In this document: positions 1,543 through 21,687 of the stretch, one piece after another
How positions within the stretch are numbered: the first letter of the stretch is position 1
How the letters are laid out: the number at the start of each line of letters is the position of its first letter
Source of the DNA: an uncultured bacterium
Lineage (GTDB): Bacteria > RBG-13-61-14 > DATKZS01
Length of the DNA stretch: 37,754 bases
Direction: 5' to 3'
Assembly (NCBI GenBank): GCA_964650485.1
Contig: CAZYTX010000032.1
Coordinates: 1 to 37,754 of the forward strand
Made by a program: the position numbers and the translations under genes
The notes under the pieces: generated by a model
Told to the model about the DNA's origin: nothing
Databases searched by the model: none
The model's input: only the letters and a program-made list of their open reading frames with translations

Positions 1543-1619
1543 GGCGGCGTAGCTCAGGAGGTCAGAGCATGCGGCTCATATCCGCAGAGTCCGGGGTTCG
1601 AATCCCTGCGCCGCCACCA
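1543..1619 (+). tRNA. tRNA with CAT anticodon: elongator tRNA-Met or tRNA-Ile2 (lysidine, LAU), including encoded CCA
   Basis: I hand-folded a cloverleaf. The acceptor stem GGCGGCG pairs with CGCCGCC, the D-arm is GCTC/GAGC, the anticodon stem TGCGG pairs with CCGCA with loop CTCATAT (anticodon CAT), and the T-arm is CGGGG-TTCGAAT-CCCTG, followed by discriminator A and CCA. It is not an initiator: the 1:72 pair is G-C and the anticodon stem lacks the 3xGC run. Confidence 0.85.
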
Positions 1620-5768: not shown

Positions 5769-5777
5769 TGCCAGAGA

Positions 5778-6137
5778 TGGTGGAGGCGGCGGGAATCGAA
5801 CCCGCGTCCGGAGACCTTCACCCCGGGGCTGCTACGTGCGTATCCCGCGCTTGATTTTAACCCAAAACCGCCGCGCGGGCGCGGAAGCTTTTGGCGATCC
5901 CCCTCTTTGATTCAACTCCTTGCAAGGCTGAGGGCTTTCCCGCAAGGGGTCGTCCTGTCTTCATTGCGCCCGGGTCCGTCCCGACAGGAGAGGACGGTCG
6001 GACGTCGCGGTCTTTACGCCGCGAGGGCGTAATCAACAGATTCGCCGTTTAAAAAGGCGCCGCTGTTTAACGTGCTTGCGGCAGCACGGCACGCTCCCGC
6101 AGGGCTCAACTGTCCCCGTCGAACCCATTTCGCCCCC
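5778..6137 (-). ncRNA. ssrA: tmRNA (ssrA), ~360 nt
   Basis: The reverse complement has a tRNA-Ala-like 5' end GGGGGCGAAATGGGTTCGACGGGG with a G3:U70 pair. The 3' end is GGACGCGGGTTCGATTCCCGCCGCCTCCACCA (T-arm plus CCA). An internal tag reading frame ...AAC GGC GAA TCT GTT GAT TAC GCC CTC GCG GCG TAA gives (A)NGESVDYALAA, ending in the canonical YALAA. Confidence 0.9.
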
Positions 6138-6224
6138 ACAAATATTATTATAACCATTTTGCGTGATCCCGCAATAGCGCCCGCGGGGATGCAAAAACTC
6201 ATGCATTCCGTTAGAATAATAGAG

Positions 6225-8813
6225 ATGACGCTACCGAGAGATATGCTCGACCACGTGAGCACGCCCGGGCGCTACCTGCCCCTGGAGCTGAACGTTCGCG
6301 GGAAGGACCTTGAAAGGGCCGAGGTCAAGGCGGCGCTCGCTTTCCCCGACCTTTACGAGGTGGGCATGAGTCACCTGGGGGTGGGCATCCTCTACCACCT
6401 TATGAACGACCTCGAATGGACGGCCTGCGAGAGGGCCTTTGCGCCCTGGACGGACATGGAGTCCCTGATGAGAGCGAAGCAGGTCCCATTAGTGTCCATG
6501 GAGAGCCAGGTTCCCTTGAGCAAGTTCGACCTCTTGGGCTTCTCGCTCACCTACGAGCTCTGCTACACCAACGTGCTGAACATGCTGGACCTTGCCGGCA
6601 TACCCCTGTTTGCAAAGGACCGCGAGCAAGATGGGTGGCCCCTGGTCATAGGGGGCGGGCCTTGCGCGTCCAACCCTGAGCCGGTGGCGCCCTTTTTCGA
6701 CGCCTTCCTGTTCGGGGACGGCGAGGACGCGGTGCCCGAGATGTGCGGGGCGATAAGGGAGTGGAAGCAGGGCCGGGGCGATAAAAGGGACCTGCTTTCG
6801 AGGCTGGCCCTGATCGAGGGTGTATACGTGCCGTCATTTTTCGAGCCGGTGTATAATGAAGACGGCGCTATAAAGGAGATAAGGCTCCTGCAACGGGGGT
6901 GCGAGCGGGTAAAGAGGAGGGTCGTCTCTGACCTTGACAGCGCGTACTTCCCCGGCTCTCCCCTGGCGCCGGTGATCGAGCCTGTGCACGACCGGCTGAT
7001 GGTGGAGATCGCCAGGGGGTGCACCCGTGGTTGCAGGTTCTGCCATGCGGGGTCGGTGTGCCGCCCTGCCAGGGAGAGGTCCCCGGAGAAGGTGCGCGAG
7101 CTGGTGAGCAGAGGTCTTGCAGCCACCGGTTACGAGGAGGCCTCACTGCTTTCCCTTTCCGCTGGGGACTACACCTGTCTTCCCGAACTGGTCATGTCCC
7201 TTGTGAAGGAGCATTATAAAAACCGGGTGTCAATAAGCCTTCCCAGCCTCAGGGTGCAGGGTATTCCGGACGAGGTGCTAAAAGCCATGCAGTCGGTGAG
7301 AAAGACCGGCTTCACCCTGGCGCCCGAGGCCGGCACCGAGCGGCTGAGAAGGGTGATAAACAAGGACTACTCTGAAGATGACCTGCTGGGTACCGCACAG
7401 AGGGTGTTTTCGCAAGGATGGCGTAACCTTAAGCTCTACTTCATGGCGGGTCTTCCTGACGAGCGAGACGAGGACATCGAGGGGATTCTGGAGACGGCCT
7501 GGAAGGTCTCGAAGATAAAAGGGTCAAATGGCAGGCCGCAGGTTACGGTGAGCATAGGCGGTTTTGTGCCAAAACCCCACACCCCTTTCCAGTGGGAGGC
7601 CCAGGCCGGGGTGGAGCGGCTGAAGCAGGTGCAGCAGCGGGTGCGTCGCGGCTTTTCCGGCAAGGGTAAAAGGGTGAGGTGGCACGATCCCTGGATGTCC
7701 AGGCTGGAGGGGGTGTTCAGCAGGGGCGACCGCAGGCTGGCCCCGGTGCTGGTGCGGGCATGGCGCAGGGGTGCCAGGTTCGACGGGTGGAGCGAGATGT
7801 TCAACCACGCGAGGTGGGATGAGGCCTTTGCAGAGGAGGGGATCGAACCGGAATACTACACGAGGGAAAGGGACCGTGAAGAGGTGTTCCCCTGGGAGCA
7901 CCTGGACAGCAGGGTAGGGCGAGAGTGGCTGTGGAACGAGCGCGAGCGGGCTTATAACAGGGAGATGACGCCCGACTGCAGGGACGCGGGCTGCCAGAGC
8001 TTCTGCGGGGCGTGCGACTTTGGAAAGATCAAGAACAGCGAGGCGGACGAGGAGCCTTTCGAGAAGATAAAGGAGCCGCTCCCTTATGCGGCGCCGCAGC
8101 CCAGAACTCACTTTCTCTACAGGGTGCAGTACGCCAAGAGGGGCGACATGAGGTTCATGGGCCAGCTCGAGGTCACGCGGCTGTTCGGCCGGGCAACAAG
8201 GCGCGCCGGCCTGCCCATGCGCTACAGCGAGGGTTTTCACCAGAAGCCGCGCATCATGTTCGGGCCGGCTCCTCCCCTGGGCGTGGCCAGCGAGGCCGAG
8301 TACATTGACCTGGAGCTTTTGCGCAGGCTCCCCGAGGAAGGGGTAAAGACCGCGCTTGGCGGGGAAATGCCGGAGGGAGTGGAGATAAAAAGGGTGCAGG
8401 AACTCCCGGCAAAGGCCCCTGCGGTAACCTCGGCAATAAGCGACCTCGAATACCTGGTGAGCCCTGCAAACGGACTGGGCTTCCCGGAGGACAAAATAAA
8501 AAGGTTCATGGACAGGGATAGCCTGTTGATCACCCAGAAGAGGGAGAAGGGCGACCGCGAGGTGGACGTCCGCTCTCTGGTCAAGTACCTGGCTGCGGAG
8601 GACGACGGGTCATTGCGCATGGGCATAAAGAGGGTTGAAGGCCCGGGGGTGAAGCCGCAGGAGGTGATAAAATGCGTGTTCGGGATGGACGAGGAAGAGG
8701 TGCGGAACCTCGAGATAATAAAGACCCGGGCCAGGTTCAAGAAGCCGAGTCCGGTGCGTTATCCTGGCCGGTCGGAGAGGGCCAGGAAGCCCGGGGGTCG
8801 GAGGCGCAGCTAG
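6225..8813 (+). CDS. B12-binding-domain radical SAM protein fused to a DUF2344 / radical-SAM-linked domain (TIGR03960 + TIGR03936 type)
   Basis: The N-terminal B12-binding-like region is followed by CTRGCRFC (CxxxCxxC) and a C-terminal ~250-aa DUF2344-like domain (HFLYRVQYAKRGDMRFMGQLEV...). The start is uncertain among ATG 6201, 6225 and 6243. The ORF's 5' extension overlaps ssrA and is rejected. Confidence 0.85.
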   Translation: MTLPRDMLDHVSTPGRYLPLELNVRGKDLERAEVKAALAFPDLYEVGMSHLGVGILYHLMNDLEWTACERAFAPWTDMESLMRAKQVPLVSMESQVPLSKFDLLGFSLTYELCYTNVLNMLDLAGIPLFAKDREQDGWPLVIGGGPCASNPEPVAPFFDAFLFGDGEDAVPEMCGAIREWKQGRGDKRDLLSRLALIEGVYVPSFFEPVYNEDGAIKEIRLLQRGCERVKRRVVSDLDSAYFPGSPLAPVIEPVHDRLMVEIARGCTRGCRFCHAGSVCRPARERSPEKVRELVSRGLAATGYEEASLLSLSAGDYTCLPELVMSLVKEHYKNRVSISLPSLRVQGIPDEVLKAMQSVRKTGFTLAPEAGTERLRRVINKDYSEDDLLGTAQRVFSQGWRNLKLYFMAGLPDERDEDIEGILETAWKVSKIKGSNGRPQVTVSIGGFVPKPHTPFQWEAQAGVERLKQVQQRVRRGFSGKGKRVRWHDPWMSRLEGVFSRGDRRLAPVLVRAWRRGARFDGWSEMFNHARWDEAFAEEGIEPEYYTRERDREEVFPWEHLDSRVGREWLWNERERAYNREMTPDCRDAGCQSFCGACDFGKIKNSEADEEPFEKIKEPLPYAAPQPRTHFLYRVQYAKRGDMRFMGQLEVTRLFGRATRRAGLPMRYSEGFHQKPRIMFGPAPPLGVASEAEYIDLELLRRLPEEGVKTALGGEMPEGVEIKRVQELPAKAPAVTSAISDLEYLVSPANGLGFPEDKIKRFMDRDSLLITQKREKGDREVDVRSLVKYLAAEDDGSLRMGIKRVEGPGVKPQEVIKCVFGMDEEEVRNLEIIKTRARFKKPSPVRYPGRSERARKPGGRRRS

Positions 8814-8838
8814 CCCACGGCACAACGAGGATGCGGTG

Positions 8839-10353
8839 ATGGAAAGCGATATTCTGATAAACGTGACCCTGCAGGAGACCAGGGTGGCGGTGGTTGAGAA
8901 CGGGGCGCTGGCCGAGGTGCACATCGAGCGGCTGCGGGACAGGGGCATAGCCGGCAACATTTACAAGGGCCGGGTGGTGCGCGTTCTTCCCGGGATGCAG
9001 GCGGCCTTTGTTGACATCGGTCTCGACCGGGCCGCGTTTCTTTACGTGTCCGAGGTTATTCCTTATTTGAAGAGCATCAGCCTGCCCGATACAGATGAGC
9101 TTATCTCGGAGAAGGAGGAACTAAGCCACAAGCTCTCGGATGAAGCCGAGCAGGCTGACATCCAGGACCTTTTAAAGGAGGGCCAGGACGTGGTGGTCCA
9201 GGTGACAAAAGAGCCGCTTGGCACCAAGGGGGCACAGGTGACCACCCACGTGACCATGCCCGGCAGGTACCTGGTGTACATGCCCACTGTTCGCCACGTG
9301 GGGGTGAGCAGGAGGATAGAGAGCGACAAGAAGAGGGCCCAGCTAAGGAAATGGGTGGAAGAGATGAGGCCCGACGGGGCCGGCGGCTTTATCGTGCGCA
9401 CTGCCAGCGAGGACCACTCCAAGGAGGACCTCAGGGCTGACAAGGACTACCTGTTGAAGGTATGGAAAGACATGCAGAACCGGGCCATGCGCTCGAGCTC
9501 GCCCAGCATCGTGCACCGCGAGCTTTCCCTCGACCTCAAGGTCATCCGCGACCTTTTCACCGAGAAGGTCAGAAGGGTGGTGGTGGACTCCGAGGACCAG
9601 TTCCATGAGATCAAGTCATTCATGGAGATGTACATGGGTGAGAAGGACGGCAAGGTGGAGCTGTACACGGGCGAGCTCCCCCTGTTCGAGACCGCGGGCG
9701 TGGAGCTGGAGATCAACCGGGCCCTGGACAGGAAGGTGTGGCTCAAAAGCGGGGGATACATAGTCATAGACCAGACCGAGGCGCTAACCGCCATAGACGT
9801 AAACACCGGTCGCTACGTGGGCAGGCGCAACTTCGAGGAGACCATATTAAAGACCAACCTGGAGGCATTGAAGGAGATAGTGTACCAGATAAGGCTGCGC
9901 AATATCGGGGGCCTTATAATAATAGACTTCATTGACATGGCCGACCAGGGCAACCGCGAGAGGGTGTTCCAGGCGCTTGACAAGGAGCTCAAAAAGGACA
10001 AGACCAAGTCAACCATACTCAAGATGTCGGAGCTCGGCCTGGTGGAGATGACAAGGAAGAGGGTGCGCGAGAACCTGTTCCAGACCCTGTGCGAGTCTTG
10101 CCCTTACTGCGAGGGCAAGGGGCACTTGAAGTCCAGGACAAGCGTGTGCTACGAGATCTTCAGAGAGATAAACAAGAGAGCGGACCTTGCGGGAAAACAC
10201 CTGAACCTGTTCGTGAACCCCGAGGTCGCGGACCTCCTCTTCGACGAGGAGAGGGAAGGGATCGAGGAGCTGGAGCGGAACCTGGACGTGAAGGTGGAGA
10301 TAATAGTGAACAACTCCTTTCACCAGGAGCAGTTCGAGGTGGAAGCTGGCTAA
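8839..10353 (+). CDS. rng: Ribonuclease G (Rne/Rng family ribonuclease)
   Basis: The N-terminal S1 domain (NIYKGRVVRVLPGMQAAFVDIGLDRAAFL) is followed by a DNase-I-like catalytic region with (E)ALTAIDVNTG, then a Zn-link and small domain. Length is 505 aa. A GAGGAT RBS precedes ATG 8839. Confidence 0.9.
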   Translation: MESDILINVTLQETRVAVVENGALAEVHIERLRDRGIAGNIYKGRVVRVLPGMQAAFVDIGLDRAAFLYVSEVIPYLKSISLPDTDELISEKEELSHKLSDEAEQADIQDLLKEGQDVVVQVTKEPLGTKGAQVTTHVTMPGRYLVYMPTVRHVGVSRRIESDKKRAQLRKWVEEMRPDGAGGFIVRTASEDHSKEDLRADKDYLLKVWKDMQNRAMRSSSPSIVHRELSLDLKVIRDLFTEKVRRVVVDSEDQFHEIKSFMEMYMGEKDGKVELYTGELPLFETAGVELEINRALDRKVWLKSGGYIVIDQTEALTAIDVNTGRYVGRRNFEETILKTNLEALKEIVYQIRLRNIGGLIIIDFIDMADQGNRERVFQALDKELKKDKTKSTILKMSELGLVEMTRKRVRENLFQTLCESCPYCEGKGHLKSRTSVCYEIFREINKRADLAGKHLNLFVNPEVADLLFDEEREGIEELERNLDVKVEIIVNNSFHQEQFEVEAG

Positions 10354-10366
10354 AGGAGCTTGAGTA

Positions 10367-12997
10367 ATGGAAAAGGACCAAAAGCTCGGAGACCTTCTGG
10401 TCGAGGCCGGTTTTGTTGACGAGATGCAACTTAGATCGGCGCTGGGCCACCAGAAGAGGTGGGGCGGAAAGCTGGGAAAGGCGCTTGTGGACCTGGGCTT
10501 TATTGAAGAAGACGTGATGATAAAGTTCCTTGCCGAGCAGTTCAAGATGAACGCCGTGAACCTGGCACGGTCGAGAATAGCCCCCCAGACCTTCCAGATG
10601 GTGCCCGAAGATGTCGCCAGGAGACATAGGGTGGTGCCGGTGGTGGCAAGGGGAACCGGGAGCAAGAAAACCGTGGTCCTGGCAATGAGCGACCCTACAA
10701 ACCTGGGAGTGATAGACGAGATACAGTTCCTCATAGGCGCAAAGGTGGAGCCGGTGCTGGCTACAGACTCGGCAATCTCCAGGGTGCTGGCAAGCTACGG
10801 AGACTATAACCCCGAGGCATCCAGGGAAATACATTACCATGAAGCCGTGATACCGGCGCAGCTTAGAGATATGGAAGAGGAAAAGGCCGCCAAAGAGGCC
10901 GCTAAGAAACAGCGGGAACAGCCGAAGCCGGAACAACCACAGAAAACACAGACACCCGAAGAGGATAAGCTGGAGATAGGAGACGAGGACGAGCTCGAAG
11001 TCGTAAAGGGCGATGTGACCATGCTAAAGGCCCAGAAGCCCTCCCGAAAAACTCCGCCTCCGGAGCAACCCGGGCCCACAACCAGGCAGCCTGAAGCTCC
11101 CTCCAGGGGCAGGGAGGTCATACTGGGAGAGGAAGAAAAACAGGAAAAGCCACAGGAGAAAAAATCCGAATCACCCTTCCTGCTAAAGCCTGAAAAAGAG
11201 GAAAGGCAAGATATGGCCCCTCCGCCTCCTCCCAAGCAGGTGTCTGAGCAGGAGAGGTCCGTACCTCCAGATGTCGAGGGGCCACCATCAATGGAGCAGG
11301 CTCCTGAAGAAACCCCCGGGCCACCGGGTATTGAGGAGCCTCCCTTGATCGAGGACCTGGAGCCTGTCACCGAGAGCCAGGAACATGTCGGCCCTCCACA
11401 AGCTCCCGAGGAGGGGCCCCAAGAGCCGCAACCCGGGCAAGCCGAAGAAAAATCCTGGTTCGTGCCCCCGTCTCCAAATCAGGAAGCACTCTCGGACCAG
11501 TCCGCGGAGGATGAAATCTCTCCCCTCGAGCTCCCGGACGAGGAGCCGGGAAAAATTGAGCTGGCTGACACCCACGAGTTCATACCCCCGGCCCATGCGG
11601 AGCAGTTTATTGGCGGGACAGAGGAACAGGAGGAGCCGGAACAAGCAGTGCCGGGCCCTGACTCGAGCGCGCCGCCTCCACAAGAGGAGGCGCCCGAGAT
11701 CGGCCGGGAGCAGACAGGGATGCCCCCTTTGCCGGACGATCTGGCGAATTCGCCCGGAGCGCAGCCGGATGTAGAGCCCGTGCAGGAGCAAGAGGCAGCC
11801 GCTCCGCCCGCGGCCGAGGATTATGAGAAGCCCGAAGCCCGGCCTGAGACCCCTGCTCCGCCGGGAGAACCGGATGCCGGTACGCAAAAGGGGCCCGACC
11901 TGGAAGTGCCTTCCCTGGATTTCATGGGCGCCGGGGAGAGCGTAGACCACGGGCCGCAGCAGCCTGAAGGGCCCCAAGAGACCGGGCCAGGGCCTGTCGA
12001 GGAGCAACCCGGACCCGCGGAAAAGCCCCCCGACCTGGGGATCGGGGACCAGGGACAACAAGCGCCCGGACAGCAGCCACAGGCCCCCGCCCAGGACGAG
12101 ATCTGGAGCAGTCCGGGGGCGAGCGAGGAATCCATCTGGGCGGCAGGCGAGTCCGCTGAAAAGCCGGCCGCGCCTGACCTGCCTGACCTGCCCCCATTGC
12201 CGGACCTGGGTGCAGGCTCCCCCTTGGATGAAGGGCCGTCACCCGGACCGGAGCAGGAAGAAAAGCCCGCACCTCCGACAGACACGGGAGAAGACTACTT
12301 CTCGGCCCTGGGGACGGATGAGGGTGAAGGTCCCTCTCCGCTGCCCTTCGAGGCCCCGCCCCCGGACCTGGGAGACGAAGCGCCGGAGCAGCCGCAAATC
12401 CCGGCCTCTGACCCTAAGGAGGAACCGCCATTGGATGAGGCGGGTCAAGCACAGGAGTTCGAGCCGCTAACACCGGAGCAGCCTTCACCGGGCTACGAGG
12501 TGGTGGAGAGCGAAAGCCTCGATTATGAGCCCGGGGAGGGATTCCAGTCTTTTCAGCAAGCTCCGGGCGAGCCATCAGTGGAGGAGCCTGCAGGGCCTCC
12601 TTTGCAAACCGACCAGGAAGAGAGGCTTCCCTGGGAAGATATGGAACAGCAGCGAGAGGAACAAAAGCAAGAGGAGGAAAAGCCTCCTGATGAAGACCCG
12701 CTATATCTGATGGCAAGGGTGGCCGCGGCCCCTGACGAATCGCCCGGGCTCGAGGCTGCAAAAGAGCAGATCGAGAAGCTGGAGGGTTTGGGCGAGGAGT
12801 ACCTGGATACAAAAGAAGTGAAAAAAAGATTGGAGCAGGTGGCCGAGATGGAGCACGACATTAAGGAGCGCGAGTACCAGTTCGACGAGCTTTTGAACCT
12901 GATGATGAAAAAGGAGATGGGCGAGGTCACCCAGGAGCTGTTCATGAAAGAGCTCCAGTCCCTGAAACAAAAGGTTGACCGCTCCCGAGAGAATTAA
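10367..12997 (+). CDS. MshEN (T2SS-E N-terminal, c-di-GMP-binding) domain protein with a ~650-aa Pro/Glu/Gln-rich disordered region and a C-terminal coiled coil
   Basis: The N-terminal ~145 aa match the GspE_N/MshEN fold. KLGDLLVEAGFVDEMQLRSALGHQ fits the RLGxxLVxxGFVxxxxLxxALxxQ c-di-GMP-binding motif. The following low-complexity P/E/Q/A/G sequence is acidic, and the last ~90 aa form heptad-like coiled coil. Confidence 0.75.
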   Translation: MEKDQKLGDLLVEAGFVDEMQLRSALGHQKRWGGKLGKALVDLGFIEEDVMIKFLAEQFKMNAVNLARSRIAPQTFQMVPEDVARRHRVVPVVARGTGSKKTVVLAMSDPTNLGVIDEIQFLIGAKVEPVLATDSAISRVLASYGDYNPEASREIHYHEAVIPAQLRDMEEEKAAKEAAKKQREQPKPEQPQKTQTPEEDKLEIGDEDELEVVKGDVTMLKAQKPSRKTPPPEQPGPTTRQPEAPSRGREVILGEEEKQEKPQEKKSESPFLLKPEKEERQDMAPPPPPKQVSEQERSVPPDVEGPPSMEQAPEETPGPPGIEEPPLIEDLEPVTESQEHVGPPQAPEEGPQEPQPGQAEEKSWFVPPSPNQEALSDQSAEDEISPLELPDEEPGKIELADTHEFIPPAHAEQFIGGTEEQEEPEQAVPGPDSSAPPPQEEAPEIGREQTGMPPLPDDLANSPGAQPDVEPVQEQEAAAPPAAEDYEKPEARPETPAPPGEPDAGTQKGPDLEVPSLDFMGAGESVDHGPQQPEGPQETGPGPVEEQPGPAEKPPDLGIGDQGQQAPGQQPQAPAQDEIWSSPGASEESIWAAGESAEKPAAPDLPDLPPLPDLGAGSPLDEGPSPGPEQEEKPAPPTDTGEDYFSALGTDEGEGPSPLPFEAPPPDLGDEAPEQPQIPASDPKEEPPLDEAGQAQEFEPLTPEQPSPGYEVVESESLDYEPGEGFQSFQQAPGEPSVEEPAGPPLQTDQEERLPWEDMEQQREEQKQEEEKPPDEDPLYLMARVAAAPDESPGLEAAKEQIEKLEGLGEEYLDTKEVKKRLEQVAEMEHDIKEREYQFDELLNLMMKKEMGEVTQELFMKELQSLKQKVDRSREN

Positions 12998-13274: not shown

Positions 13275-14309
13275 ATGAAGACACTGGTGACAGGCGCGAG
13301 CGGGCTTATCGGGTCCCGGGTGGTGCGCGCACTACTGGCCCAGGGCCGCGAGGTGCGGGCCATGAAGCGGGCATCCTCGGACCTGCGCAACCTTGAGGGG
13401 CTGGACCTCGAGCTGGCGGACGGGGACCTGCTCGACCCCGGCTCGCTTGACCGCGCACTAAAAGGGTGCGACAGCCTCTTCCAGGTGGCGGCCATATACC
13501 GGCACTGGCACCCCAGGGGCGGCGAATTCATCAGGAAGACCAACATCGAGGGCACCCGCAACATCCTCGAGGCTGCGCTGAAACGCGACCTTGAAAAGCT
13601 GGTCTACACCAGCTCCATATCCTCGGTGGGTTTTAAGCCCGGTCGTTTGAGCACGGAAGATGATTTCCCGGACCTGAAGGACTGCCGCCGGCAGCCCTAC
13701 CGGGAGAGCAAGTTCATAAGCGAGAAGATGGCCTTCGAGTACGCGGAGAGGCTGCCCATCGTGATCGTTAACCCGGCCTCCCCCATAGGCGTGGGCGACT
13801 GGGCCCCAACACCCACCGGCCGGGTGATCCTGGACTTCCTGAACGGCAAGATGATAGCCTTTGTTGACGTGGGACTAAACCTCATTGACGTGGACGACCT
13901 GGCACAGGGATACCTGCTGGCCGAAGAGAGGGGGCGCGTTGGCGAGCGCTACATCCTGGGCAACCATAACACCCGGCTCCGGGAATTCCTGCAAATGATC
14001 GCGGACATGACCGGGCTTCCGGCCCCCCGTGTAAAGGTGCCCAAAGCCCTCCTCAGGGTGGTGGCAGAGGTGAACGAGTTCGTATCAGACATTACAAAGA
14101 GGGAACCGGTGGCCGCGGTGGAGCAGGCCCTGCACACCCGGTACAACGAGTTCGTGGACTGCACAAAGGCCAGGACGGAGCTGGGACTTGCGCAGAACGA
14201 CATCCGGATAGCCATCCACAAGGCTGTGAGATACTACCTTGACACAGGCGATGTAAAGCCCGGCCGCAAAAGCATGATCGAGCTGAAGGGTCCTGACACC
14301 ACTACTTAA
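13275..14309 (+). CDS. NAD-dependent epimerase/dehydratase (extended SDR family; dihydroflavonol-reductase/HpnA-like)
   Basis: Rossmann motif TGASGLIGSRVV is at the N-terminus, a catalytic YxxxK (YRESK) follows, and the 344-aa length fits. Confidence 0.85.
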   Translation: MKTLVTGASGLIGSRVVRALLAQGREVRAMKRASSDLRNLEGLDLELADGDLLDPGSLDRALKGCDSLFQVAAIYRHWHPRGGEFIRKTNIEGTRNILEAALKRDLEKLVYTSSISSVGFKPGRLSTEDDFPDLKDCRRQPYRESKFISEKMAFEYAERLPIVIVNPASPIGVGDWAPTPTGRVILDFLNGKMIAFVDVGLNLIDVDDLAQGYLLAEERGRVGERYILGNHNTRLREFLQMIADMTGLPAPRVKVPKALLRVVAEVNEFVSDITKREPVAAVEQALHTRYNEFVDCTKARTELGLAQNDIRIAIHKAVRYYLDTGDVKPGRKSMIELKGPDTTT

Positions 14310-14681
14310 TAGCGTATGGCCACCTTAGGGAAGACAAAGCCGGGCCACCTCGCCCGGGTGCAGGCCCCTTACGGCAGGTTCAGCTATCTCTTGCACGACC
14401 CGCTCTCGATTATATTCATTGCCGGGGGCATTGGACACCTGACTTTTCCACATCTCCCATCTAATTTGCGAAGCCGGCAAAAAAGCTCACGCCATCCCGG
14501 TTGCCATCGCCGTTATTGACTCCTGGCTGAACCCGGGGCGGCACGTCGCCGGCCCTGTGCGACTCTTAGCTCTGTTTGCCTTGTTTGCCAAACATTTTTT
14601 GGGCTCTTTTTTTCAGATGAATTTGTAACCGTGCTCGCGCTCGGTTATTATCTCGCTTTGAATAACAGAGGAGGGTTGCAC

Positions 14682-15197
14682 ATGGCATACCAGAGCCTGC
14701 CAAAGAGGCTCGAGAAGTGGGCCCAGGAGAGGGTGCCCGGGCTGCGCACGTACCTCGCACGCGAGAACCTGCGCGACTCGGACAAGCTGATCCGGGACGA
14801 GCTGGCCGCCCGCCTGGACAAGGTGAAGGCAGTGCTTGACAAGGCCAAGCAGGACCGGGTGGACGCCGGGAGCCTGAAGAACCTGGACCGGCTGGACAGG
14901 GCCACCAGGAAGGTCGAGAAGGTAAGGGACACCATAAAGTTCGACTCGAGAGGATACCAGGGAATATTCGACCCCCGTGAGGTCACGGAAAAGGACCTGC
15001 ACGCCCTGCTCGACTTCGACGGCAAGCTATTCGACGTGGTCGAGCTTTTGGAGGCCGAGGCTGTAAAAGTAGCGGCGCTCTCGGACCCCGAACTCGCAAG
15101 CGCGCTCTCCGGGTTCGAGGACCAGGTGGAGGCCATGCACCAGACCCTGGGGCAGCGCGAGGACTACTCGAAGGAAAAGCTCCCGGCCGCAAGGTAA
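14682..15197 (+). CDS. Hypothetical coiled-coil protein (171 aa), first gene of the SPFH-associated cluster
   Basis: There is a strong RBS AGAGGAGGG 6 nt upstream of ATG 14682. The protein is charged and helical/coiled-coil rich, and it sits immediately upstream of and co-directional with the SPFH gene. Confidence 0.6.
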   Translation: MAYQSLPKRLEKWAQERVPGLRTYLARENLRDSDKLIRDELAARLDKVKAVLDKAKQDRVDAGSLKNLDRLDRATRKVEKVRDTIKFDSRGYQGIFDPREVTEKDLHALLDFDGKLFDVVELLEAEAVKVAALSDPELASALSGFEDQVEAMHQTLGQREDYSKEKLPAAR

Positions 15198-15223
15198 TAT
15201 AAAAAAAGAATGGAGGAAAGGGC

Positions 15224-16369
15224 ATGGCATTCCTGGACATAATCGAGTGGTTTGACGAGACCGGCGAGGAGATGGTGCACCGGGTGCCGGAGTCGGGCTC
15301 CGCGGAGACCAAGTACGGCTCGCAGCTTGTGGTGCGCGAGAACCAGGCCGCGGTGTTCTTCAGGGACGGCAAGGGCCTGGACGTGCTCGGGCCGGGCAGG
15401 CACACCCTGTCCACCCAGAACATACCGCTCCTCACCAAGATGCTGACCGGCCTGGGCTTCGGCCTGGACTCTCCCTTTCGGACCGAGGTGCTCTTCATCA
15501 ACATGAAGGTGTTCACAAACATGAAGTGGGGCACCCGGGAGCCGGTGGCCTTCCGCGACTCCGAGCTGGGCCTGGTCAGGCTGCGCGCCTTCGGCAACTT
15601 CACCGCCCGGGTGACGCAGCCGCTGCTCTTCGTCAACAACCTGGTGGGCACCATGGGAAGGTACACCACCGCGGACATAGAAGGGTACTTGAAGGACGTG
15701 ATCGTGGCCAGGCTCAACGACCTCTTGGGAGAGCAGCTCGACACCGTGTTCAACCTGCCAGCGGTGTACGACGAGCTCGGGGTGGCGGTGAAGATGCGGC
15801 TCTCGGACGACTTCGACAAGTACGGGCTCGAGCTCATTGACTTCTTTGTACAGTCAATCACCCCGCCCGAGGAGGTGCAGAAGATGATTGACGAGCGCGC
15901 CGGCATGGGCGCGGTGGGCGACCTGGGAAAGTTCACCCAGTTCCAGGCGGCCAAGTCCATGCGGGACGCGGCCCGGGGAGGGGCCGGGGGCGAGGGCGGC
16001 GGACCGGCCTCCGCCGGCATGGGAATGGGCGTGGGCGCCGGCCTTGGCCTCATGATGCCGGGGATGATGTTCCAGACCATGAAGGGCATGACACCAGAGC
16101 AGACCCAGCAGAAGATACAGGAGTCCGGGGTGATGGCATGCCCGGCATGCCAGGCGCAGATACCACCGGACTCGAGGTTCTGTCCAAAGTGCGGAGAGCA
16201 GCTCGTGGTGGTGAGGAAGTGTCCGAGCTGCGGCAGGAACGTGGACGCGGAGGCAAAGTTCTGCTCCCAGTGCGGCCAGGACCTTTCGAGCAAGCCGGCC
16301 TGCCCGAGCTGCAAAAAAGAGGTGGTCCCGGGGACGAAATTCTGTCCCCACTGCGGGGAGAAGCTTTGA
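15224..16369 (+). CDS. SPFH/band-7 family protein (COG4260-type) with three C-terminal zinc-ribbon repeats
   Basis: The N-terminus MAFLDIIEWFDETGEEMVHRVPE...QLVVRENQAAVFFRDGK is typical of this SPFH subfamily. A Gly/Met-rich linker follows, then three CPxC-x9-11-FCxxCG motifs. RBS GGAGGAAAGGG precedes the start. Confidence 0.85.
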   Translation: MAFLDIIEWFDETGEEMVHRVPESGSAETKYGSQLVVRENQAAVFFRDGKGLDVLGPGRHTLSTQNIPLLTKMLTGLGFGLDSPFRTEVLFINMKVFTNMKWGTREPVAFRDSELGLVRLRAFGNFTARVTQPLLFVNNLVGTMGRYTTADIEGYLKDVIVARLNDLLGEQLDTVFNLPAVYDELGVAVKMRLSDDFDKYGLELIDFFVQSITPPEEVQKMIDERAGMGAVGDLGKFTQFQAAKSMRDAARGGAGGEGGGPASAGMGMGVGAGLGLMMPGMMFQTMKGMTPEQTQQKIQESGVMACPACQAQIPPDSRFCPKCGEQLVVVRKCPSCGRNVDAEAKFCSQCGQDLSSKPACPSCKKEVVPGTKFCPHCGEKL

Positions 16370-16393
16370 AATTCGAGTCCGCATTCTAATCCC

Positions 16394-16858
16394 ATGTACG
16401 ATCTTGTTGCCGAGGTTATGAAGATAACCGGTATCCTTGAAGACGGCGGCATTAAGTACGCGCTGTGTGGGGGGCTCGCGGTCGGCATTTACACGGAGCC
16501 AAGGGCTACCATAGATATTGACCTCGTGGTCGAGCCCGATGACCTGGAAAGAATAATCGAGCGCCTCAAGGAAGCCGGGTATGAAAAGTTCTCAGGGCCC
16601 ATGCCGCTCGAAAAGGGGAGGATGAATATCCAGCGTCTTGTAAAGCTTGAGCAGGGCAAGCCCGAGGTCCTGATGCTGGACCTTTGCATGCCCGATAAAA
16701 ACAAGTACAAAAAGGTATGGAAAGACTGGCGCAAGGTCCCTTTCCAGGACGCCCACATCTGGGTGCTCTCCAGGGAGGGGCTTATAGAGATGAAAAGCGA
16801 GAGGAGATCGGACAAAGACCTCCTGGACTTGAAGGCCCTGGAGAAAAAAGGAAAGTGA
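16394..16858 (+). CDS. Minimal nucleotidyltransferase-fold protein (MNT-like; putative antitoxin/partner of the downstream HEPN protein)
   Basis: ALCGGLAVGIYTEPRATIDIDLVV resembles the NTase-fold h[G/C]Gx9-13DhDhhh signature. Assignment is by motif only. Confidence 0.5.
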   Translation: MYDLVAEVMKITGILEDGGIKYALCGGLAVGIYTEPRATIDIDLVVEPDDLERIIERLKEAGYEKFSGPMPLEKGRMNIQRLVKLEQGKPEVLMLDLCMPDKNKYKKVWKDWRKVPFQDAHIWVLSREGLIEMKSERRSDKDLLDLKALEKKGK

Positions 16859-16899
16859 AGCCAAGCAATATAAATCTCGACCCTGAAAGTTCCATCAGG

Positions 16900-17178
16900 A
16901 TGGCCGCGGAGATAACCAGGACCTGCAAGCTCATGCGCAATGCGTATCTGGAGAGCAGGCGCGATGAGCTCCTGGCCATTTTTAACCACTACCTTAAAGA
17001 ATCCAAAAGCATCGAGTCCCCCGACCCTGACGCTATAATCACCGGCTTCATGAAATCATGGGAGAGAGGAGATTACGAGAGCATAACAACGGCGGGCGCC
17101 CTCCTTGAAGATTCTTTTTTCCGGGACAACCGCGAGGCCCACGCCTTTTATCTGGCGGCCAAAAAAAACCTAAAATAG
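16900..17178 (+). CDS. Putative HEPN-domain protein (R-x5-H motif)
   Basis: The C-terminal FFRDNREAHAFYLAAK contains an Rx4-6H HEPN-like motif. It is a small protein directly downstream of the MNT-like gene. The start is uncertain: ATG 16900 or in-frame GTG 16855. Confidence 0.4.
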   Translation: MAAEITRTCKLMRNAYLESRRDELLAIFNHYLKESKSIESPDPDAIITGFMKSWERGDYESITTAGALLEDSFFRDNREAHAFYLAAKKNLK

Positions 17179-17183
17179 AAAAG

Positions 17184-17936
17184 ATGCAGATAAAGTGCAC
17201 ACAGTGCGGGGCCGGGGTGCCGATCGAACATGACACCGGCTTCATCAACTGCCCCTTCTGCGATACCGCGTTGTATCTGGACACTGACCGTACGGTCAAG
17301 CACTTCTACCTGGACTTCCAGGTCTCATCGAAAGACCTTGCCCCCGTGATCCAGAGGAAGCTCTCCTACATGGAGGTCAAGGCGCCGGTGAAGGTTTTGA
17401 GCCACTCCATGGTGTTCCTGCCGGTATGGAAGCTGGAAGCCGCCACCGGTGAGACCGTGCTGGTGCCGGGGGCCGCCTTGTCCATGGAGGCCATGGAGGA
17501 GCTGCGACTGCCCGCGGGCGACCTGAAGCTGATGGGCCCGGACGCTGCCGCTGACAAGGAGCTGACCGAACCAGAGCTGCTTCTGGAGGACGCGGCCCGC
17601 AAGGCCCGGGAGACGCTGGGGGGTGAGGACGTGAAGATCAGGGCCGCCTCGCTGGTGCACCTGCCCTTTTACCGGGTGGAGTACTCCTGCAGGGACGAGT
17701 CGTTCGAGGCCGCGGTGGACGGCGTATCCGGCGAGGTGTACGCAGACTCCTGGCCCTCGGCCCCCCACAGGCAGAAGGACAGGGTCCTGGGCATGATCGC
17801 GGCCCTGGCCTTCGGGCTCTTCTTCATCGAGGCCGCGGCCATACCCGGCTTCTGGCTGGTGGTCCCGGCTTACGCAATCACCGGGGTCGGCATCTACTTC
17901 CTTGCAAGGGGCGTTCTCAAGAAGATGGGATGGTGA
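17184..17936 (+). CDS. Zinc-ribbon membrane protein, paralog A (N-terminal CxxCG...CPFC; two C-terminal TM helices)
   Basis: N-terminal CTQCG-x14-CPFC is followed by conserved blocks shared with paralog B (HFYLDFQ..VIQRKL; LPFYRVEY...AAVDGVSGEVY). The C-terminal hydrophobic hairpin is VLGMIAALAFGLFFIEAAAIPGFWLVVPAYAITGVGIYFLA. Confidence 0.7.
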   Translation: MQIKCTQCGAGVPIEHDTGFINCPFCDTALYLDTDRTVKHFYLDFQVSSKDLAPVIQRKLSYMEVKAPVKVLSHSMVFLPVWKLEAATGETVLVPGAALSMEAMEELRLPAGDLKLMGPDAAADKELTEPELLLEDAARKARETLGGEDVKIRAASLVHLPFYRVEYSCRDESFEAAVDGVSGEVYADSWPSAPHRQKDRVLGMIAALAFGLFFIEAAAIPGFWLVVPAYAITGVGIYFLARGVLKKMGW

Positions 17937-19116
17937 GCCCTTGGCAAAGATCGTCCACGTAAACTGCCCCAGGTGCGGGGGCACCCTGGGCATGGCCGGC
18001 GTGGACCGTGTGGTCAAGTGCCGCTACTGCGGCTCCTGGTCGTTGGTGGACGCGCCCGGGGTGGTGCCCGAGTACTTTGTAATGCCGAGCCTCAAAGAGT
18101 CGGACGCCCGCCGGGTGATACAGCGGCTGCTCATGGACGACGACATGCCGGACGGTATGCTGAAGACGGCCGCGTTCCACTCTGCCAGGCTCTACTTCAT
18201 TCCCTACCACGAACTTTCCGGCAAGAGGCTCGGCACCATGACCACCACACAGTACAAGGAGACCTCGCGCAGGCCCTCACTCGATCTTCGGACCGGGGCC
18301 TATGGAATGGAGGGGGTGAGTCTCCGGGAGCAGCGGGCCATGACCCCCAAGGAGAAGCAGAAGGACACCAGGGTGGTGATGGCCGACGTGACCAGGCTCG
18401 AGCCCGCGGTCAGGCTCAGCCAATGGGCCCTGGACCAGGCGGAAATAAGCTCGCTGCGTTCGGGCCCGGCCGGGGTGCTGCAGCCCATGAACCGCCGGAC
18501 CATGGAGAGGCTGGGGAAGGTATACGACGCAACAGTGTCTCCCGAGCAGATGATCTCGTCCATGGACTCGGGGCGGCTGGCCGCGTCCCTGGACGACCGC
18601 ACCGAGATCGCCGAGGTCAGGATCAAGAGGATATTTTATCCTGTATGGAGGGTGAGGTACCGCTACCAGGGCAGGCTCTACGGCGCAAGTGTGGACGGGG
18701 TCACCGGAAAGGTCATGACCGCGAGGGCCCCCCGGGACGACCGCAACCGGGTGCTCTGGCTGCTGGGCACGAGCGCGCTCCTCTCTTTCGTGGGAGGGAA
18801 GATCGTGAGAGCGGTGGGCATAGCCGCCCTGTTCGATCGGGAGAGCGTTAACGCCCTGCTCACTTTTTTTGTCCAGGGCGCGTATCTTGTGGCGCCCCTG
18901 GTGCTGGTGGCTCTCATGGTGGTGGTGTTCGTTATGGGGATGGGGTGGGAGCAGTTCAGGTACGAGGGCGAGCTCATAATAGAGGGCGACAAGCGGAGGG
19001 TGGAGAAGATCAACCGCCCGGCTCGCACGGCCTTCGACAAGATACAGAAGTTTTTGCAGGACGTCATCAACCGGGTCTTTCAAACTTATCGGCAAAGGCG
19101 GGTTAATAGATGGTGA
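17902..19116 (+). CDS. Zinc-ribbon membrane protein, paralog B (CPRCGG...CRYCG; C-terminal TM helices)
   Basis: It shares with paralog A EYFVMP...VIQRLL and YPVWRVRYRY...ASVDGVTGKVM. The start is uncertain: a TTG at 17902 or 17941 is required to include the zinc ribbon, and it overlaps the upstream gene. Its stop overlaps the start of paralog C (ATGGTGA). Confidence 0.65.
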   Translation: MQGAFSRRWDGEPLAKIVHVNCPRCGGTLGMAGVDRVVKCRYCGSWSLVDAPGVVPEYFVMPSLKESDARRVIQRLLMDDDMPDGMLKTAAFHSARLYFIPYHELSGKRLGTMTTTQYKETSRRPSLDLRTGAYGMEGVSLREQRAMTPKEKQKDTRVVMADVTRLEPAVRLSQWALDQAEISSLRSGPAGVLQPMNRRTMERLGKVYDATVSPEQMISSMDSGRLAASLDDRTEIAEVRIKRIFYPVWRVRYRYQGRLYGASVDGVTGKVMTARAPRDDRNRVLWLLGTSALLSFVGGKIVRAVGIAALFDRESVNALLTFFVQGAYLVAPLVLVALMVVVFVMGMGWEQFRYEGELIIEGDKRRVEKINRPARTAFDKIQKFLQDVINRVFQTYRQRRVNRW

Positions 19117-19763
19117 CGGAGGAGCTGAAGGTCGTGCCCCTGGTGTGCCCCGACTGCGGGCGGGGCCTTTTGGGCCTTCGATACGACAAGGTGTTCTTCT
19201 GCATGAGCTGCATGCAGGGGCTCTACCCTCCGGCCCGGGGACAATGGGAGCGCTTCCCGGCGAGCTTCCCAAAGCTCGACGAGAACTCCATGCAGCCCTC
19301 TTTTTACCTCCCCTTCTGGGAGATCAAGATCAAGGTTGATGCCGTGGCCGCCAGCAGGCAGCAGCAGGTGGCGCTAAAGAAGCTGGAAGACCTGGACACG
19401 GCCTGGGTCACCGGCTTCTCCGTGATCCGGGCCAGCTACTACGGCGACCTGGGCCTGCTCTACACGGAGAAGAGGATAAGGCTCGAGCCCGGTCCCAGGC
19501 CGGCGCGAGCCTTCATCACCGGGTGCAGCCGCACGGTCCTTGACGTTACAAAGTACGTGGAGCTGCTGGTCACCTTGATCCTGGACAAGAGGGCCGACGT
19601 GACCGGCATGGAGCTTGACATTAAAACAACCGGTGCAAAGCTCTGGGGGGTCCCCTTCCTGGACAGGGGCGACAAGGTGGCGGACCTGGTGACCGGCGCC
19701 GAGCTGCCGGTGTTCGCCATTGACGACCTCGAGGACGTGAAGAGGGTATACTCCAGAAGATAA
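19110..19763 (+). CDS. Zinc-ribbon protein, paralog C (CPDCG...CMSC), soluble
   Basis: N-terminal Cys4 ribbon is followed by SFYLPFWEIKIKVD, which echoes the LPVWKLE/YPVWRVRY blocks of A and B. There is no TM segment. Confidence 0.65.
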   Translation: MVTEELKVVPLVCPDCGRGLLGLRYDKVFFCMSCMQGLYPPARGQWERFPASFPKLDENSMQPSFYLPFWEIKIKVDAVAASRQQQVALKKLEDLDTAWVTGFSVIRASYYGDLGLLYTEKRIRLEPGPRPARAFITGCSRTVLDVTKYVELLVTLILDKRADVTGMELDIKTTGAKLWGVPFLDRGDKVADLVTGAELPVFAIDDLEDVKRVYSRR

Positions 19764-19774
19764 GGGAACCGCCC

Positions 19775-20974
19775 CTACTTCTTCTTGAGCTCTGCCACGG
19801 CTTCCTCCAGGCCCTCGATGGTGAGGTCGAACATGGGCAGCACCCGCCTGATCTCTTGTATGGTCTCGGCGCCCTCGGTCCACCCCCACCTGCTCCTGTG
19901 CTTGGGGTTCAGCCATACCGCATGGGGGAAGGTCTCGGCCAGGAACTCGATCCACTTTATCCCCGGCCGGGTCTGGGTCTCGTAGTAATAGATGCTGCCC
20001 TGGCCCCCCATGAGCTCGTAGGGGGCCATGGAGGCGTCGCCCACGATGATGAGCCTGGTCTCCGGCTCCCATTTCGAGAAGTCAATGGTGTGGCAGGGCT
20101 TCCTCACCCGCACGGGGTCCTCCCACACGCGATCGTATATGCAGTTGTGGAAGTAGAAGGTGTGAAGCTCCTTGAAGTTGGCCCGGGCGTAGGCGAAGAG
20201 CGTGGTGCACACCTCGATGAAGGGGTCCATTGACCAGCCGCCGTTGTCCATCAAGAGCACCACCCGGAGCCTGTCCCGGAGCGCCCGGTCGAACACTATC
20301 TCTATCTCTCCCCCCTGCCGGCAGGTCTGTTTTATGCTCTCCTCGATGTTGACCCGGTCGCGCGGCCCCGCGGGGCGCAGGTTCTTCAGGTGCCGGAGGG
20401 CCTCGCCCATCTCCGAGGCCCCGATGGTGCGGCCCACCGAGTAGTCCTTGTAGCGCCGCTCCATGGCCACCTTGACCGCGGTCTTGCCGCCCGAGCTCCC
20501 GCCCACCCTCATGCCGCCCGGGTTGTATCCCGAGTGCCCAACCGGCGAGGTCCCCCCGGTGCCGATCCAGCGGTCGCCCCCGTGGTGGGCCTCGGTCTGC
20601 TCCCCGAGCCTTTCCAGGAAGTACTTTACAAGCTCATCGGGCGAGAGCTTTTTTATGTCCTCGGGGTCAAGGCCCAGAAGCTCGGCCAGGTCCTCGGGCT
20701 TTGTGAGCCACTCCTCCAAAAGGCGCCGCATGGAGTTCTCCATCTCCTGGCTGATCTCGTCGGTGAACTCGATGCCGTGGAAGCAGGACGCGAACACCCG
20801 GTCGTACAGGTCGAAGAACCGCTCGCTCTTTACCAGGATGGAACGGGCCACCACGTAGAAGTCCTCCAAGGATGCCACCAGCCCCAGGTCCAGGGCCTTC
20901 TGAAGGCGAAGGAAAGCAGTGGGGGTCACGGGGACGCCTTTGCCGCGCAGTTCGTAAAAGAAGTCTATGAACAT
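19775..20974 (-). CDS. VWA-domain CoxE-like protein (vWA-MoxR-associated family)
   Basis: The N-terminus MFIDFFYELRGKGVPVTPTAFLRLQKAL is the typical CoxE-family opening, and a C-terminal VWA-like region follows. A GGGAAGAG RBS precedes ATG 20974. The upstream 81-aa extension of the ORF is rejected. Confidence 0.8.
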   Translation of the reverse strand: MFIDFFYELRGKGVPVTPTAFLRLQKALDLGLVASLEDFYVVARSILVKSERFFDLYDRVFASCFHGIEFTDEISQEMENSMRRLLEEWLTKPEDLAELLGLDPEDIKKLSPDELVKYFLERLGEQTEAHHGGDRWIGTGGTSPVGHSGYNPGGMRVGGSSGGKTAVKVAMERRYKDYSVGRTIGASEMGEALRHLKNLRPAGPRDRVNIEESIKQTCRQGGEIEIVFDRALRDRLRVVLLMDNGGWSMDPFIEVCTTLFAYARANFKELHTFYFHNCIYDRVWEDPVRVRKPCHTIDFSKWEPETRLIIVGDASMAPYELMGGQGSIYYYETQTRPGIKWIEFLAETFPHAVWLNPKHRSRWGWTEGAETIQEIRRVLPMFDLTIEGLEEAVAELKKK

Positions 20975-20979
20975 CCGTA

Positions 20980-21687
20980 CTACTCTTCCCCTAAGACCGC
21001 CCGCGGCAGTGGGGCAGGGGCCTCCAGGCCGTGAACGCCGCGGCCGCTTTTTATATGTTCGGCCGCCTCTTCCAGGAACTCGAACTGCGCCGGGTGCACG
21101 AAGGGAATATGGAAGTGGCTCATCATCTCGAGCTTGGCGTCCGATAATTCCCAGCCCTGGAAAACCATGCGATAGAGCGCGACCATGACACCGGTGCGGT
21201 CCGCTCCACCCTCGCAATGCACCAGCACCGGGAAGGGCAGGCGCGCGCTCGAGGCCGCGCCCATGCCGGCATGACCGGTGACCGTCCTCTCATACTCATC
21301 AATATTGACGGCCTCGCCCCTTATTACCCTGAAGAACAGCTCCACCTGTTCCCCGGTGGGCGGGTCATCGGCCCACATCCTCATGACCAGCACGGGCACG
21401 CCCTCCCGCAAGGCCCATTCCAGGACCTCGTCCTCCTCGCTGTGGGCGAGACAGAGGATGGAGCCAAGGCCGTGCCGGTCCCGGACGAGCTCCAGGTCAC
21501 CGGGCAGGGGCTGGGCCGAGCGGATGAGCCGTCCCGGCTCCACCACCTCGAGGTTTAAAAAAGGCGACCGGTCCTGCACCAGCATGGCCCCGGAATACGC
21601 GCCAATGACGGCCACAACAAAGGCCGTGACAATCGCGGTCCTGGTTGACAGCCTCAGACCCTGCCACCTTGAAAAAGCAGACATCAA
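20980..21687 (-). CDS. Protein tyrosine/dual-specificity phosphatase with N-terminal membrane anchor
   Basis: HCEGGADRTG is the CX5R(S/T) P-loop, and the N-terminal hydrophobic segment is AIVTAFVVAVIGAY. Its stop abuts the CoxE-like start, so the two are probably co-transcribed. Confidence 0.75.
   Translation of the reverse strand: MMSAFSRWQGLRLSTRTAIVTAFVVAVIGAYSGAMLVQDRSPFLNLEVVEPGRLIRSAQPLPGDLELVRDRHGLGSILCLAHSEEDEVLEWALREGVPVLVMRMWADDPPTGEQVELFFRVIRGEAVNIDEYERTVTGHAGMGAASSARLPFPVLVHCEGGADRTGVMVALYRMVFQGWELSDAKLEMMSHFHIPFVHPAQFEFLEEAAEHIKSGRGVHGLEAPAPLPRAVLGEE

Follow-up and report, generated by a model that had tools for sequence, protein, structure and literature searches.

A conserved SPFH and zinc-ribbon operon of uncultured bacteria that looks like a PspA-less variant of the pspA-ydjGHI membrane-stress system

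The locus holds five conserved genes and two inserted ones

The window analysed here is a stretch of 37,754 nt from an uncultured bacterium (contig CAZYTX010000032.1). At positions 14682-19763 its plus strand carries seven co-directional, tightly packed open reading frames (ORFs), which an earlier note, made from the sequence alone, had proposed as a module of seven genes around an SPFH protein and several zinc-ribbon proteins. Orientation and spacing are as described there, but the module itself consists of five genes, here called CC, SPFH, A, B and C. The other two, a nucleotidyltransferase (NTase) gene and a small ORF, are inserted between SPFH and A and are missing in most relatives. The five-gene operon is real and conserved in uncultured bacteria. 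It looks like a PspA-less variant of a known membrane-stress system, the pspA-ydjGHI (pspA-samGHI) operon of Bacillus, and not like a defence island. The locus comprises the following features (protein lengths in amino acids, aa):

14623..14651, plus strand: sigma-70-like promoter candidate (TTGTAA-17-TATTAT), 30 nt before the start codon of CC
14682..15197, plus strand: CC, 171 aa, soluble, predicted four-helix bundle; invariant upstream partner of the SPFH gene
15224..16369, plus strand: SPFH, 381 aa, YdjI/SamI-type, predicted cytoplasmic; Band_7_1 domain at residues 19-229, Gly/Ala/Met-rich linker, three zinc ribbons at residues 306-381
16394..16858, plus strand: inserted gene 1, 154 aa, putative nucleotidyltransferase fold; outside the conserved module
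16855..17178, plus strand: inserted gene 2, ~107 aa, small and helical; not demonstrable as HEPN
17184..17936, plus strand: A, 250 aa, YdjG/SamG-like; N-terminal Cys4 ribbon, alpha/beta domain, predicted C-terminal transmembrane (TM) helical hairpin
17941..19116, plus strand: B, 391 aa from TTG 17941 (404 aa from TTG 17902); YdjG/SamG-like, paralog of A
19110..19763, plus strand: C, 217 aa, soluble; N-terminal Cys4 ribbon and an uncharacterised alpha/beta region; conserved third member of A-B-C

GGAGG Shine-Dalgarno sites lie upstream of the CC and SPFH genes, and the B/C junction is an ATGGTGA stop/start overlap at 19110-19116, exactly as the earlier note had read it. A further overlap of 35 nt, claimed for A and B, is probably an artefact of ORF calling. 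It is doubtful because TTG 17941, located 4 nt past the stop codon of A, gives MAKIVHVNCPRCGG, which matches the ortholog starts MARIKHVNCPTCGG. Inserted gene 2 probably starts at GTG 16855 and not at 16717; via the resulting GTGA overlap with the preceding stop codon it is probably translationally coupled to inserted gene 1. We count the tight spacing, the overlaps and the strong Shine-Dalgarno sites in favour of a coupling of the genes. The promoter candidate is the sole plus-strand match within 14200-20000 (1 found, 1.3 expected after shuffling), so that its position alone is suggestive. A scan for promoters and terminators yielded nothing above background.

The gene string is conserved at low sequence identity

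Using A as seed, a genome scan returned 25 loci from unclassified 'bacterium' metagenome-assembled genomes (MAGs) and from Acidobacteriota (Holophagae, Thermoanaerobaculia and Ca. Sulfomarinibacteraceae). CC and SPFH are located directly upstream of A in 25/25. B and C follow directly downstream in 20/25, are missing in two, and the remaining three loci end too early. The full string CC-SPFH-A-B-C is colinear in 20/25 loci, and the closest relative (L112) carries the same five genes. CC-SPFH-A(-B-C) stays colinear in relatives at only ~30% protein identity (27-31% for A, CC and SPFH between lineages). The gene string is hence far from chance. As a refuting outcome the earlier note had named a random juxtaposition, with no string conserved in any relative; given the gene order found in relatives, this refutation fails.

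An independent metagenome scan seeded with CC gave 80 loci, 66 of them with room downstream. A Band_7_1 gene directly follows CC in 65/66 of the latter. In this set A/B/C genes stand beside a ribbon-tailed SPFH gene in 18 of 21 loci and beside one with a helix-turn-helix (HTH) or SHOCT tail in none of 15, whereby these counts ignore kinship. Taken together, CC-SPFH is the invariant core, and A-B-C is an accessory set tied to the ribbon-tailed SPFH proteins.

Three side observations concern the module in relatives. In 17 Acidobacteriota-type loci C is followed directly, and in the same orientation, by a flotillin gene (Band_7 and Flot, ~497 aa) and by the gene of a conserved ~372-aa partner (e.g. 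L002 11622-14242, L019, L021, L023-L028, L078, L082, L084, L101 and L109), which places two different SPFH systems next to each other; the window holds no such genes. Immediately upstream of CC, L001 (5425-6078) and L112 (6086-6739) encode a protein of 217 aa that is missing in the window; its N-terminus resembles a signal peptide, and it has no Pfam match. One Holophagae MAG contains a second copy of the module (L029 8393-12591), in which apparent frameshifts break up SPFH, A and B into several ORFs, owing either to decay of the copy or to errors in a long-read assembly.

The SPFH protein belongs to the YdjI/SamI type

Residues 19-229 of the SPFH protein cover positions 2-210 of the 211 positions of the Pfam model Band_7_1 (PF13421) with an E-value of 3.6e-61 and 206.9 bits (cut-off 24). 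A Gly/Ala/Met-rich low-complexity stretch follows at residues 250-300. Six CxxC motifs at residues 306-377 constitute the three C-terminal ribbons that had been proposed for this protein; they match DZR (82 bits) and also Zn_Ribbon_1. A hydrophobicity scan of the sequence revealed no TM-like segment. For comparison we used YdjI as encoded at a real Bacillus locus (L110). BLASTP aligns both proteins over 326 residues with 26% identity (E 8e-33), colinear through linker and ribbon. On this basis the SPFH protein is assigned to the YdjI/SamI (COG4260/Band_7_1) type, in line with the COG4260 assignment in the earlier note. YdjI/SamI is described as soluble, with a zinc finger at its C-terminus and a low-complexity linker, and as relying on YdjG/YdjH for its recruitment to the membrane (PMC8581546; bioRxiv 10.64898/2026.02.06.704340).

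The tail after the linker is interchangeable among the CC-linked Band_7_1 proteins. It consists of two or three zinc ribbons, of SHOCT, or of an excisionase-like HTH with the pattern MTPxEAA..V.E.DV...I..G.LKA.K.G..YRI. Tail-swapped examples are found at L040 (8484-9545), L044, L062 and others, and at L038 (8507-9532). The loci with HTH or SHOCT tails are without A, B and C.

A and B are profile-level relatives of the membrane protein YdjG/SamG

A and B each possess one N-terminal Cys4 ribbon (CTQC...CPFC in A, CPRC...CRYC in B) and end in a hydrophobic hairpin; C likewise starts with a Cys4 ribbon, so that this part of the initial description is borne out for all three. The TM-like segments of B span residues 284-311 and 316-352 and are followed by a basic C-terminal tail, and its alpha/beta domain is larger than that of A. 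The AlphaFold2 (AF2) model of A, with a predicted local distance difference test (pLDDT) score of 90.5, consists of the ribbon, an alpha/beta region and two hairpin helices (194-219 and 223-247). The family of A comprises 82 database relatives, all of ~250 aa, and Pfam finds no domain in any of them.

A and B align over their full length in BLASTP (E 3e-6). A comparison of their family profiles using hhalign gives a probability of 99.7% (E 1.4e-25), and still 98.7% (E 4e-16) with the ribbon masked. We thus regard A and B as true paralogs. The earlier note had claimed three paralogs, and this could not be shown for C: only its ribbon is convincingly alike, and the shared blocks VIQR.. and A(A/S)VDGV(S/T)G are missing from it.

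For YdjG a family alignment was built from retrieved database proteins only. The A family matches it with 96.3% probability (E 1.6e-9, 226 columns), whereby the ribbon of A pairs with the second ribbon of YdjG. The B family reaches 96.8% (E 2e-10, 255 columns). Moreover, the architecture of A and B corresponds to the layout described for YdjG, which is zinc ribbons, a YpeB-related NTF2-like domain and a TM segment (PMC11237479), and we count this in favour of homology. At the level of profiles A and B are hence classed as homologs of YdjG/SamG. Single models of Pfam do not detect this. Zn_Ribbon_TF (PF08271), the family listed for YdjG proteins, shows no match in A, B or C at E up to 1, and the same applies to TPM and to DUF4178, to which the earlier note had directed attention. 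All ribbon-model matches of A, B and C have E-values above 0.06; no nucleic-acid-binding ribbon model is reached.

C is without a TM-like segment in the hydrophobicity scan. Its orthologs measure 160-217 aa and follow B in all complete loci. Similarity of C to A, B and YdjG is significant in the ribbon only (35-38 columns, ~89%), and no significant similarity to the three remains when the ribbon is masked (E 0.007-0.1). Against a merged profile of A and B the alignment is colinear over 184 columns with E 3e-8, but it is driven by the ribbon; the hairpin motifs line up. C is a possible degenerate paralog of A and B. A full paralog was rejected on the ribbon-masked profile test. We also rejected C as an analogue of YdjH/TPM by sequence, as neither a TPM match nor similarity between C and YdjH was found.

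CC is a predicted four-helix bundle distinct from PspA

The AF2 model of CC (pLDDT 84.8; predicted template modelling score, pTM, 0.81) is a compact four-helix bundle with additional short N-terminal helices. The hydrophobicity scan found no TM-like segment, and a PDB sequence search returned no relatives. The first gene of the string had been described as a coiled-coil protein of non-IM30 type in the position of PspA. CC indeed differs from PspA: it has no Pfam match, hhalign against Bacillus PspA gives a probability of 0.15%, and a fold search yields generic four-helix bundles only. An assignment to PspA/IM30 or ESCRT-III was rejected for the same reasons.

The only curated model that detects CC is NCBIfam NF047596 (LIMLP_15305 family), with 43.6 bits and E 2.8e-11, which is far below the cut-off of 210 bits. 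Residues 23-161 align with positions 30-171 of 175, and the lengths are equal. We thus take CC as related to the LIMLP_15305 family, of which it is not a member by the criterion of NCBI. NF047596 represents a Leptospira hypothetical protein without assigned function. One paper names the locus tag LIMLP_15305 and lists it only as neighbour of a small RNA. A literature search on LIMLP_15305 and on Band_7_1/COG4260 provided nothing functional for CC.

The CC family itself is large. With E up to 1e-3 it comprises 1,167 clusters (50% identity), almost all of which are stand-alone proteins of 160-185 aa, and a cluster look-up of ten sampled representatives returned 'hypothetical protein' in each case. 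Invariant residues are found in PG..YL.RE..R..DK..RD, in the loop SRGYxGxFD, for which the model shows little order, and in the motif FD..L. Being unannotated and located just ahead of a Band_7_1 gene in nearly every case, the family is a concrete new candidate partner for research on SPFH proteins. One could speculate further that it is an undescribed large family of four-helix-bundle obligate partners of cytoplasmic Band_7_1 SPFH proteins. CC would then fill the effector or adaptor role of PspA in lineages without PspA, being loaded onto, or released from, a membrane-tethered SPFH cage on SamG-like receptors. We hold this extension as tentative and rather doubtful; if true, membrane maintenance would have a further class of machine, built on SPFH proteins and working without ESCRT-III.

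The inserted nucleotidyltransferase and small ORF are lineage-specific

The two genes between SPFH and A (16394-17178) had been read as an embedded HEPN/MNT pair. This reading is unsupported. Inserted gene 1 yields sub-threshold matches only, namely to NTP_transf_5 (30.4 bits, threshold 31.2), DUF6036, AbiEii and Lnu nucleotidyltransferases. Inserted gene 2 has no match in Pfam, no HEPN match in NCBIfam, and a weak match in PADLOC to the C-terminus of PglXI (E 2.5e-6). Its sole Rx5H motif, RDNREAH, reads LDNREAE in the ortholog of L005/L031, whereby the His is replaced by Glu. This ortholog has 108 aa and retains the GTG overlap.

Both genes occupy the identical site between SPFH and A in L005 (2190-3097), L030 and L031 (9757-10664), and are missing there in L001, L002 and most other loci. 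We take them as a lineage-specific later insertion that stands outside the machine. The same junction holds other material elsewhere. In L006 it contains a gene of 1,093 aa resembling N6-adenine methyltransferases (type IIG/PglX-like, NPPW motif; 5762-9043), and in L112 a gap of 540 nt with an ORF of 52 aa. The SPFH/A junction looks like an insertion hot spot inside the operon in the lineage of the window.

A proposed PspA-independent, membrane-tethered SPFH complex and its alternatives

We consider it probable (roughly 0.6) that the locus encodes a PspA-independent, membrane-tethered relative of the pspA-ydjGHI envelope-stress system, that is an SPFH stress or scaffold complex. Its core pair would be CC and the cytoplasmic SPFH protein. 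A and B would act as membrane receptors whose ribbon and alpha/beta domain lie in the cytoplasm, held at the inner face of the membrane by the C-terminal hairpin; this orientation is suggested because they have no signal peptide, carry Cys4 ribbons and show basic residues on either side of the hairpin. They would recruit the otherwise soluble SPFH oligomer and organise it at the membrane. The zinc-ribbon tail of SPFH is the probable docking element since the type of tail correlates with the presence of A-B-C. C may be a soluble zinc-ribbon accessory subunit, and CC an adaptor, regulator or cargo bound to SPFH. Like SamGHI, the complex would serve to sense or buffer stress on the membrane and to arrange membrane domains. 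The flotillin operon next to C in Acidobacteriota-type loci fits such a membrane-organisation role.

How the proteins interact, what the ribbons do and that the system answers to stress is inferred, as is the cytoplasmic topology. In Bacillus, YdjI depends on YdjG and YdjH to get to the membrane (PMC8581546), and SamI restrains signalling by SamGH (bioRxiv 10.64898/2026.02.06.704340). Either logic, recruitment or restraint, could apply to the system in the window.

Several points weigh against the proposed complex. PspA, the effector, and YdjH, the main anchor for binding of SPFH and PspA, are both absent, hence the mechanism of Bacillus is not simply transferable. Every interaction within the complex is a presumed one. 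The signal of A and B towards YdjG is partly derived from the ribbon, because masking it lowers the scores, for A to 13% (E 2e-3) and for B to a moderate 82.5% (E 1e-5, 210 columns). A is without a solved relative in a structure search, and a PDB sequence search was likewise empty. The correlation with the ribbon tail was counted without phylogeny, and the 13 HTH-tailed loci resemble a single clade. Regarding gene content, A-B-C occurs without a nearby CC-SPFH pair in L004, L001 and L005 have CC-SPFH-A but neither B nor C, more than 15 loci show CC-SPFH pairs without any A/B/C, and insertions of up to 3.6 kb are tolerated between SPFH and A.

These last points would also be expected of two independent neighbour systems that are physically uncoupled, a widespread cytoplasmic CC-SPFH unit and an A-B-C membrane ribbon complex with a function of its own, e.g. 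a SamGH-like sensor that signals independently. The order A-B-C-CC-SPFH in L086 points in the same direction, as do the large insertions at the SPFH/A junction in the window, in L005/L031 and in L006. On the other hand, adjacency and co-orientation persist at 27-31% identity of A, CC and SPFH, A/B/C accompany ribbon-tailed SPFH genes only (18/21 versus 0/15), and YdjG and YdjI are functionally interdependent in Bacillus (PMC8581546). We thus regard an uncoupled pair of systems as unlikely. Still less probable, in our view, is a membrane-tethered regulator of transcription, in which DNA or RNA would be bound by the TFIIB-like ribbons of SPFH and of A, B and C, and gene expression would be controlled by sequestration at the membrane in the manner of an anti-sigma factor. 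YdjG with the Pfam family TF_Zn_Ribbon has been read as DNA-binding (PMC9239133), loss of SamI leads to global transcriptional changes (bioRxiv 10.64898/2026.02.06.704340), and in some CC-linked SPFH proteins the ribbons are replaced by the C-terminal excisionase-like HTH. However, A, B and C fail to reach any nucleic-acid-binding ribbon model, short Cys4 ribbons are commonly protein-protein or structural modules, and the operon contains no conserved gene for a regulator or sigma factor. Moreover, the tail can be replaced by SHOCT, which points to a generic role as a tether.

The earlier note had also considered a defence island. In such an anti-phage or conflict module the SPFH and ribbon proteins would serve as sensor or effector, and NTase and small ORF would resemble a toxin-antitoxin pair. 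The SPFH/A junction indeed accepts conflict-type genes, as seen from the NTase with its weak AbiEii-like matches and the small ORF, and from the methyltransferase-like gene of L006; the PglXI match of the small ORF belongs here as well. But these inserted genes are missing from most relatives, and the core of five genes is syntenic and shows vertical conservation, while defence genes are typically patchy. A search of PADLOC-DB 2.0 returned no match for CC, SPFH and C, and A and B match only via their ribbon to PDC-S64 at non-significant E-values (0.09 and 0.01). Matches in PHROGs are confined to the zinc ribbons. The module is surrounded by housekeeping genes in the window (tRNA-Met, tmRNA, TilS, RNase G, CarB, a sigma-70 factor and glycogen phosphorylase), and in relatives it adjoins sdh, hem, fab/pls and flotillin genes. 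A defence function is accordingly the least probable of the explanations weighed here, and highly improbable.

Genomic surroundings in the window

The gene for tmRNA (transfer-messenger RNA; 5778-6137, minus strand) encodes the tag peptide GESVDYALAA. Together with tRNA-Met (1543-1619, plus strand) it adjoins tilS, which confirms an ordinary chromosomal context. Positions 10367-12997 (plus strand) encode a protein of 876 aa with an N-terminal MshEN domain (E 4.9e-18), followed by ~650 residues of extreme Pro/Glu/Gln-rich low complexity and a coiled-coil-like C-terminal end. This architecture is unusual for an MshEN domain of the type that binds cyclic di-GMP. Downstream of the module and convergent with C, positions 19775-21687 (minus strand) encode a protein of 480 aa, whose match is weak and VWA_CoxE-like, and one of 235 aa that resembles dual-specificity/tyrosine phosphatases and has an N-terminal hydrophobic segment. 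Neither gene recurs beside the module in relatives.

Comparison with known SPFH systems

Stomatin-NfeD (QmcA-YbbJ), HflK/C-FtsH and flotillin-YqiJ/YuaF each combine an oligomeric SPFH scaffold with a dedicated small partner or membrane protein encoded next to it. The SPFH proteins of these systems have a membrane anchor of their own and belong to other SPFH subfamilies. By description, the CC-SPFH pair follows the same gene-pair logic; CC, A, B and C show no match to NfeD or YqiJ in Pfam. The same SPFH family as in the window, Band_7_1 (PF13421, COG4260), includes proteins with variable tails such as Band-7 with SHOCT (PMC3581485; PMC11237479). Within the literature found on Band_7_1/COG4260, neither an adjacent CC partner nor a restriction of YdjG-like genes to ribbon tails is described.

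The closest comparison is the pspA-ydjGHI operon. At the reference loci L110 (Bacillus) and L113 (Clostridia-type) it consists of PspA_IM30, YdjG (Zn_Ribbon_TF), YdjH (TPM_phosphatase) and YdjI (Band_7_1 with a ribbon). The membrane protein next to YdjG, which the earlier note gave as a DUF4178 protein, is thus YdjH, a TPM protein (PMC11237479). The parallel as such turned out stronger than claimed, as A and B are themselves assigned to YdjG/SamG. Both systems share a soluble Band_7_1 SPFH protein with low-complexity linker and C-terminal ribbon, homologous to YdjI (E 8e-33), and a YdjG/SamG-type protein with N-terminal ribbon and C-terminal membrane anchor, to which A and B correspond at profile level. 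In both, the YdjG-like and YdjI-like genes lie in one co-directional operon. The Bacillus operon belongs to the sigma-W regulon, with induction by envelope or alkaline stress; ahead of CC only the weak sigma-70-like candidate is seen.

The differences are considerable. The module in the window contains neither a PspA_IM30 gene nor a TPM_phosphatase (YdjH/SamH) gene, and its first gene encodes the unrelated four-helix-bundle protein CC. The SPFH gene is the second one, ahead of the G-like genes, and not the last as in pspA-ydjGHI. The SamG-like gene is duplicated (A and B), and a soluble ribbon protein (C) is added. A triplication of the zinc-ribbon partners had been suggested; the set is indeed expanded, with A and B on the YdjG/SamG side, but C is not demonstrably paralogous beyond its ribbon. 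A and B have one ribbon each and a helical hairpin, whereas YdjG has two ribbons and a single TM segment, and three ribbons are found in the SPFH protein versus one in YdjI. The hosts are Acidobacteriota and unclassified MAGs in place of Firmicutes.

Being without PspA and TPM protein, the module fails membership in pspA-ydjGHI while it shares the SPFH-receptor pair of that system. Work on SamI/YdjI and SamG/YdjG has to date been confined to Bacillus, where both figure as accessories of PspA. The partnership of SPFH and SamG-like proteins seemingly reaches into Acidobacteriota and an unclassified lineage, and its occurrence without PspA or TPM protein argues for the SPFH-receptor pair as an autonomous unit, not only a device for the recruitment of PspA. 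That SamG-like genes stand beside ribbon-tailed SPFH genes only is a testable rule, which suggests the C-terminal ribbons as the docking element of this pair.

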